Part shown: positions 25,381 through 25,527 of the stretch, piece after piece
How positions within the stretch are numbered: position 1 is the stretch's first letter
Layout: every line of letters starts with the position of its first letter
Origin: an uncultured Clostridium sp.
GTDB lineage: Bacteria > Bacillota > Clostridia > TANB77 > CAG-508
NCBI GenBank assembly: GCA_964468015.1
Contig: CAYXUA010000001.1
Span: 1 to 49,203, forward strand
Reading direction: 5' to 3'
DNA: 49,203 nt
Translations under genes and position numbers: made by a program
Notes under the pieces: generated by a model
The model's input: only the letters and a program-made list of their open reading frames with translations
Database searches by the model: none
Told to the model about the DNA's origin: nothing

Positions 25381-25527
25381 TAGAGTAGTTGAAAAGGAAT
25401 AGGATATCAAAAAATAAAATATAAGAGGCGATGAGCGCCAGCCCTTTGAGGCGGGGGAATACCCGTGAGCCTGAAGCCATCACCTCTTATATTTTATTTT
25501 TTGATATCCTATTCCTTTTCAACGGCC
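25381..25527 (+). repeat. Long-hairpin intergenic element E4
   Basis: Flank TAGAGTA (25381-25387). Perfect 41-bp arms at 25388-25428 and 25483-25523. The 54-nt core contains GCCCTTTGAGGCGGGGGAATACCCGTGAGC, the exact reverse complement of the E3 core. Flank GGCC (25524-25527). Confidence 0.85.

Follow-up and report, generated by a model that had tools for sequence, protein, structure and literature searches.

A conserved hairpin loop, probably inverted in place more than once, in a dispersed palindromic family of an uncultured Clostridium

Two long hairpins in the genome of an uncultured Clostridium sp. share a GC-rich core whose sequence is reversed between them, and the short motifs at their feet point the same way. 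Has this core been turned around between its arms, and does it still turn? An earlier note, made from the sequence, had read the core as an invertible segment flipped by recombination between its inverted-repeat arms. We examined both hairpins in the window, the whole 49,203-nt stretch of contig CAYXUA010000001.1 that was analysed (assembly GCA_964468015.1), together with the source genome, which comprises 1.45 Mb in 186 contigs at 29.8% GC.

The cores of the two hairpins, E3 and E4, are exact reverse complements. The 30-mer GCTCACGGGTATTCCCCCGCCTCAAAGGGC has two exact matches in the window, at 21953-21982 on the plus strand (E3) and at 25441-25470 on the minus strand (E4), and 100 shuffles gave a chance expectation of zero. 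In a repeat search of the window the inverted match grew to 35 nt with 97% identity, and the reversal goes beyond the 30-mer to take in the entire loop. The asymmetric flanks are co-oriented: TAGAGTA on the left and GGCC on the right can be read directly on the plus strand of both elements. The flipped core and the unflipped flanks, both described in the earlier note, are thus confirmed.

Each element has a simple anatomy of flank, arm, loop, arm and flank. In E3, sequence reading places TAGAGTA at 21901-21907 (plus strand) and GGCC at 22027-22030 (plus strand). Between them, an inverted-repeat search found a 39-nt left arm (21908-21946) with 100% complementarity to the right arm (21988-22026). 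The arms enclose a 41-nt loop (21947-21987) with core A on the plus strand, located by the exact 30-mer; this is the minority, flipped arrangement (F/A+). E4 begins with TAGAGTA at 25381-25387 (plus strand, by sequence reading), which together with the first stem base reads TAGAGTAG. Its AT-rich left arm, 46 nt long (25388-25433), was found by the same search to pair with the right arm (25478-25523) with one C.A mismatch at 25429/25482. The 44-nt loop (25434-25477), again located by the exact 30-mer, has core A on the minus strand, the arrangement fixed in other genomes (F/A-). GGCC follows at 25524-25527 (plus strand), identified by alignment of copy ends; the family consensus here is GGCY, usually with TA 0-2 nt beyond. 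The arm sequences of E3 and E4 differ, so that the loop and the short flanks are the sole parts in common.

Both hairpins lie between genes, E3 between the ypeB stop and the murE-like promoter and E4 between convergent genes. Folded as single-stranded DNA, E4 reaches -49.8 kcal/mol (z = -12.7). The core itself folds weakly (z about -2) and does not look like a terminator, and we rejected that role for it. A direct repeat of at least 3 nt, as would mark a target-site duplication of the type left by MITEs, is absent from the ends of E3 and E4. Strain variation touches the flank to the right of E4: in the public sample X6, a contig joins ...ACGGCCCT straight to 25554, a 24-nt deletion of 25530-25553 between repeated aatcaa motifs.

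About 20 dispersed long hairpins in this genome are built on a common scaffold. It consists of TAGAGTA, a G-C-closed, AT-rich stem of 27-46 bp around a loop, and GGCY; a second flank pair in the family is CTAG ... GGTAACATTG. At least four unrelated loop types share this scaffold: core A (41-52 nt, GC-rich), of which E3 and E4 are copies; core B (about 130 nt, with a nested hairpin); core C; and core D (about 100 nt). Two further members lie in the window. E1 (10552-10743, minus strand) has the scaffold reversed, reading GGCT ... TACTCTA on the plus strand, around a core-B loop of ~120-130 nt with its nested hairpin. E2 (17354-17484, plus strand) is a related long hairpin with 42-bp perfect arms, a core-C loop and the flanks CTA(G) ... 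GGTAACC. Core A occurs in 15 copies, 12 of them exact or near-exact pattern matches and the rest variants. TAGAGTA stands at the foot of 12-13 family members, and TAGAGTAG at the foot of 12 of the 14 aligned F-class copies.

The family is intergenic and its members sit mostly at gene 3' ends. An Rfam search of the window elements returned no family at gathering score, and its sub-threshold matches were to generic miRNA-hairpin models only. TA usually stands on both sides beyond the tips (TA-GAGTA ... GGCY(N0-2)-TA; 10 of 14 F-class copies, for example 21899-21907 / 22027-22033), which could be a duplicated TA target or extra base pairs that close an internal loop. One core-A copy is truncated. 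At C18:8060-8145 (L119 161-250), TAGAGTAG abuts the loop, the left arm is absent, and the right arm runs into TACTCTA, so that the TAGAGTA motif flanks this copy on both sides in inverted orientation.

Arms and loops have diverged in very different ways. Within copies the two arms pair at 730 of 739 positions (98.8%), and the arms of different copies have a mean identity of 0.59, where shuffled arms give 0.54. Such high pairing within copies combined with low identity between them is the expected signature of copying from arm to arm. The core-A loops, by comparison, are 86-100% identical among copies.

Core A occurs in both orientations within this one family. We set every copy with TAGAGTA on the left and scored the ten core-A copies with readable TAGAGTA/GGCY flanks. 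Seven have the E4 arrangement (A-: E4, C3:15538, C17:6350, C77:2773, C78:1980, C115:832 and C120:532) and three the flipped E3 arrangement (A+: E3, C42:6171 and C98:861). After strand normalisation, the loop of the flipped copy C42:6171 equals those of the unflipped copies C3:15538 and C115:832 at 44 of 44 nt. The loop of E3 is 98% identical to that of unflipped C17:6350, with one base different over the full 41 nt, and C98:861 falls in a third loop subgroup. In both sets of close relatives (E3/C17 and C42/C3/C115), the reversed tract coincides exactly with the spacer between the arms and ends where the stems end.

These relationships place the flips late and make them plural. Each of the three flipped copies belongs to a different loop subgroup and has unflipped nearest relatives, so that at least three independent flips are needed. 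The earlier note had allowed that the two orientations might instead be separate old lineages. Loops that are 100% identical in both orientations, together with flips in three subgroups, argue against such a descent. The class flanked by CTAG and GGTAACATTG is A- in this genome (C41, C66) and A+ in the single copy of the congener G004 (L004), which appears to be a further flip, seen in an independent assembly. Core B had no flips: all four complete copies in the genome share one loop-to-flank orientation.

Elsewhere the arrangement of core and flanks is fixed. We collected 80 core-A loci from other MAGs, 40 of which had scorable flanks. TACTCTA always lies 3' of the plus-oriented core, by 13:0 for the strict motif and 31:0 with variants, and the second flank class found there (AGCCTACC ... 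CGGCT) likewise has one arrangement, 9:0. Many loci in these tallies represent one element shared by related MAGs, and the counts therefore do not reflect independent events. Set against this uniformity, the E4 arrangement clearly appears ancestral and that of E3 derived. Flips are enriched here, with 3 of 10 copies against 0 of 31 in other MAGs (Fisher p = 0.011, the loci being partly the same element). The hairpins themselves also differ: in other genomes the arms are shorter and interrupted and the tips are larger and partly paired, and in this genome pairing is perfect along the arms as far as the loop. That the arrangement is fixed elsewhere suggests either that one-strand pairing between base motif and tip matters to whatever process acts on these elements, or that an imperfect inner stem prevents flips.

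Core A has spread in another manner in some of these relatives. In Hadza-derived Clostridia MAGs (L042, L046, L057, L064, L071, L078, L080, L082, L084, L087 and L102), many copies have near-identical arms (TTAATTTTAAAAACAATG ... CATTGTTTGTAAAAATTA). There, the family resembles in its behaviour a MITE-like repeat that has proliferated recently, in contrast to the pattern of one stem per copy seen here. An exact 21-mer, GGGTATTCCCCCGCCTCAAAG, also turned up in Shewanella salipaludis (L105) and a Prolixibacteraceae MAG (L088), in both without the surrounding long hairpin; it is probably a coincidence, as a rough estimate gives ~0.3 chance matches in the 596-Gb collection. JGI metagenome contigs contained one match to the core, at a contig end, and none to the E3 arm.

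We think it probable that the loop has been inverted in place, recurrently and passively, through the perfect arms. Four features favour this reading: arms perfect within copies and diverged between them, exact inversion of the spacer, recurrence, and enrichment of flips where perfect arms are longest. E3 and E4 would then be diverged members of a dispersed palindromic hairpin family with the E4 arrangement ancestral, and the loop would have inverted in E3 and, independently, in C42:6171 and C98:861. Because the arms are perfect reverse complements, each has an identical partner on the opposite strand. A nascent strand or recombination intermediate could leave one arm for that partner, read through the loop in reverse, and return to its original template in the second arm. 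The same copying from arm to arm would keep the arms of each element complementary while arms diverge between copies. Whether by template switching or by recombination within the palindrome, we infer this mechanism from the pattern alone. Template-switch mutation at palindromes and quasi-palindromes is reportedly the subject of a model by Ripley, and Kelchner and Wendel are said to have described minute inversions of plastid hairpins in 1996.

Inversion of a hairpin loop is a known type of mutation, and the flips described here are an instance of it. Template-switch inversion of loops has been documented, including in bacterial rRNA hairpins (Monttinen & Loytynoja 2022, PMC8794818), as have the 'minute inversions' of plastid hairpins (PMC12928735). 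As in those micro-inversions, the spacer between perfect inverted repeats is exactly inverted and otherwise unchanged, and the event recurs. Unlike in them, the loop here is long (41-46 nt), GC-rich and extremely conserved, and the arms measure 35-46 bp. The hairpins are also members of a dispersed family with an asymmetric TAGAGTA/GGCY base, rather than isolated hairpins in RNA genes or spacers.

Could the core instead have been inserted in either orientation? A mobile core might land in the tips of existing long palindromes, or whole hairpins might insert both ways between TAGAGTA and GGCY. Identical loops do occur in stems whose similarity hardly exceeds that of shuffled sequence, which is hard to explain by slow drift alone and leaves room for a mobile loop module, and the multiplicity of loop types on one scaffold points the same way. 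The boundaries, however, are not those of an insertion: similarity fades gradually from the loop into the inner stem, through stem ends specific to each subgroup and a common AAAAATAAAA tract, with no sharp edge. We found no scaffold with an empty tip in this genome. The orientation relative to the flanks, fixed in other genomes at the 31:0 and 9:0 given above, also means that insertion was not random with respect to them. Together these points make insertion an unlikely source of the two orientations.

The flanks themselves appear to be part of the element and not a pre-existing target. The expected number of TAGAGTA...GGCY targets in a genome is below one. We considered such sites as targets and rejected them: TAGAGTA...GGCY sites lacking a hairpin amount to six loose matches genome-wide, a chance level, although one of them, C23:4934, is a possible solo or empty site. 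Nor is the TAGAGTA/GGCC target present at orthologous empty sites. E4 is absent from the orthologous locus in all four congeners examined. E3 is absent from three of the four, where a small, ordinary hairpin resembling a terminator occupies the site and both TAGAGTA and GGCC are missing. In the fourth, G004, an element does occupy the E3 site, and the contig breaks off within it. The end of that contig (G004:C24, L026), orthologous to ~21990-22080, holds a related arm (...CTTTCTTTCGAC-GGCC) downstream of ypeB, so E3 may predate the split of the two species. It terminates in a 44-nt perfect palindrome that is probably an assembler artefact.

Passive inversion, our preferred reading, has to be set against a livelier one, in which the loop inverts often in living populations and every locus is a mixture, either as a regulated switch or as a by-product of hairpin-primed (rolling-hairpin-like) copying or mobilisation. 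The enrichment of flips in this genome, the only one in which long perfect arms abut the loop, counts in its favour. The loop, though, is a poor candidate for a switch. At 41-44 bp we judge it too short for an invertase, since a segment of this length is too short for site-specific invertase synapse on duplex DNA. We found no promoter-like site inside the E3 or E4 loop; the sole strong predicted one, TTGACT-17-TATAAT at 21872-21844 on the minus strand, is located outside E3. The nine genes scanned (those at ~20.4-27.5 kb around E3 and E4, plus three more at 11-19 kb) include no recombinase gene. The genes at ~20.4-27.5 kb encode a MurE-like ligase, YpeB, a cell-wall hydrolase, an MGDG-synthase-like glycosyltransferase, the product of a 118-aa ORF (25581-25937) with no Pfam match, and an AAA_21 ATPase.

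Population samples and other genomes also speak for stability. E1 was in the window's orientation in all four samples examined as k=31 contigs; it can be read at that word length because of an arm mismatch 6 nt from its base and loop asymmetry within 25 nt. The 40 scorable copies in other genomes are fixed in arrangement. What remains of the proposed invertible segment is therefore the part concerning history: the core was flipped between its arms, and repeatedly (C42 equals C3/C115; E3 nearly equals C17), while a working switch finds no support. Likewise, the idea that the arms mediate the inversion is reasonable, but active switching through them is unsupported. We consider frequent flipping improbable and a programmed inverton unlikely; the flips look to us like rare, passive events on an evolutionary scale, not a regulated or high-frequency switch.

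Public k=31 assemblies are blind to the orientation of E3. Because the arms are palindromic, k-mers shorter than an arm form the same set for both loop orientations. At E3, words that tell the two orientations apart number 0 at k=21 and k=31, rise to 2 at k=41 and reach 30 at k=55. The public runs that contain the region are stored as Logan contigs built at k=31, and these mostly break at arm boundaries when aligned to E4, E1 and E3. Two samples do give contigs with opposite loops at E3, L108 window-like and L111 flipped, and taken at face value the pair would be a sign of active flipping. We rejected it as an E3 polymorphism: the 39-bp arm exceeds k=31 and no 31-mer discriminates, so both contigs are legal walks of one k-mer graph and carry no information. 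Short-k assemblies and k-mer indexes can thus neither confirm nor exclude flips, and the same warning extends to any element with palindromic arms in k=31 resources.

The assembly of this genome is a different matter. Contig-end overlaps of 55 nt and palindromic contig ends of 54-55 nt suggest that its final k was 55. A word of that length spans the arms of all three flipped copies (37-43 bp), and the loop orientations as printed are thus probably real and supported by reads. There is still reason to ask whether the assembler mis-resolved some loops, as its largest k-mer is not much longer than the arms, which measure 37-43 bp in the flipped copies and reach 46 bp elsewhere in the family. This is a MAG in 186 contigs, the loci have a depth of about 4-15 in public samples, and the flips of the TAGAGTA class are confined to this one short-read assembly. 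Against an artefact, each flip is marked by at least 30 discriminating k-mers at k=55, five such hairpins are crossed within one 49-kb contig without a break, and a flip was also seen in a different assembly (G004, L004). Random resolution would put about half of the copies in the canonical arrangement and we count 7 of 10, although 3 of 10 is not significantly different from 5 of 10. On balance we hold mis-assembly to be a doubtful explanation of the flips.

We also compared core orientation with the direction of neighbouring genes. Seven core-A copies lie between genes that run in one direction, and in every one the core and these genes share a sense (E3, C3:15538, C77:2773, C78:1980, C98:861, C120:532 and C12:7128; binomial p = 0.016), and E3 and C98:861 fit this bias solely through being flipped. 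The count becomes 10 of 12 (p = 0.039) if convergent contexts are hand-assigned to the nearer stop. Other genomes, however, have no bias (15:19), and we therefore treat a link between core orientation and transcription as unproven and not as a finding. In the RNA run X18, a 270-nt metatranscriptome contig covering 25438-25479 has core A joined to a C77-like arm; judged from this contig, at least one family member may be transcribed, with DNA carry-over as an alternative.

A more speculative idea, which we regard as quite unlikely, is that the elements are substrates of a still-active hairpin-specific process. Such a process, for example hairpin-primed copying or the action of an HUH-type nickase on the internal loop formed by TAGAGTA and GGCY, would restore perfect arms and also yield flip and flop isomers, and selection could hold the sense of the loop relative to transcription. 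Flip/flop isomers are a property of the terminal hairpins of parvoviruses and AAV. There, as here, an asymmetric tip stands either way between perfect palindromic arms; copying of one arm from the other keeps them perfect, as it may do here. The present elements differ in being internal, chromosomal and intergenic rather than the termini of a linear single-stranded DNA replicon, and in having no linked Rep-type gene.

Programmed DNA inversion switches offer a second comparison. Invertons such as Hin/Gin, fimS and the promoter invertons of Bacteroides likewise have a segment between inverted repeats that occurs in two orientations. The segment here is unlike theirs in being 41-44 bp long, with neither a promoter nor an adjacent recombinase gene. 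Its arms differ at every locus, so they hold no common recombinase site.

A third comparison is with REP and REPIN sequences, which RAYT (TnpA-REP) transposases mobilise (PMC3116915, PMC3337134). Like them, our elements are dispersed intergenic repeats that form hairpins, and the tetranucleotide GTAG lies 5' of the hairpin foot (TAGA-GTAG). REPINs have conserved arms and a variable spacer, the reverse of what we see, where the loop is conserved (86-100%) and the arms vary (0.59). The genome has one RAYT-like gene (C7:8452-9129, 225 aa), which matches PF01797 at 39 bits and NF047646 at 61 bits, the latter short of the cut-off of 80. We considered its product as the enzyme that mobilises the TAGAGTA hairpins and rejected it, as the gene is flanked by a different repeat, AAATTGCCAAAAGGGACGGGGGATTTTGGCAATTT (the GGGACGGGGGATTTTGGCAA family).

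That gene has palindromic company of its own. A second palindromic family consists of inverted pairs of AAATTGCCAA(A/T)AGGGACGGGGGATTTTGGCAATT around an AT-rich spacer of ~38 nt, with members in the window at 23994-24125 and 27637-27664. Its motif occurs ~21 times in the genome, and inverted copies bracket the sole Y1-transposase/RAYT-like gene. Judged by sequence, this family and the RAYT-like gene appear to be a true REPIN-RAYT pair, here in a lineage of Clostridia.

The TAGAGTA hairpins matter most as a record of how palindromes are copied. If their flipping were active or under selection, the elements would represent a small invertible module of a new kind, though we have no evidence here of a working switch. 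Read as we prefer, as passive inversion in place, they provide a clean bacterial example of large hairpin-loop inversions, of 41-44 nt, recurring inside one repeat family. Perfect arms, rapid divergence of arms between copies and flipping of the loop would then be joined in one copying process.
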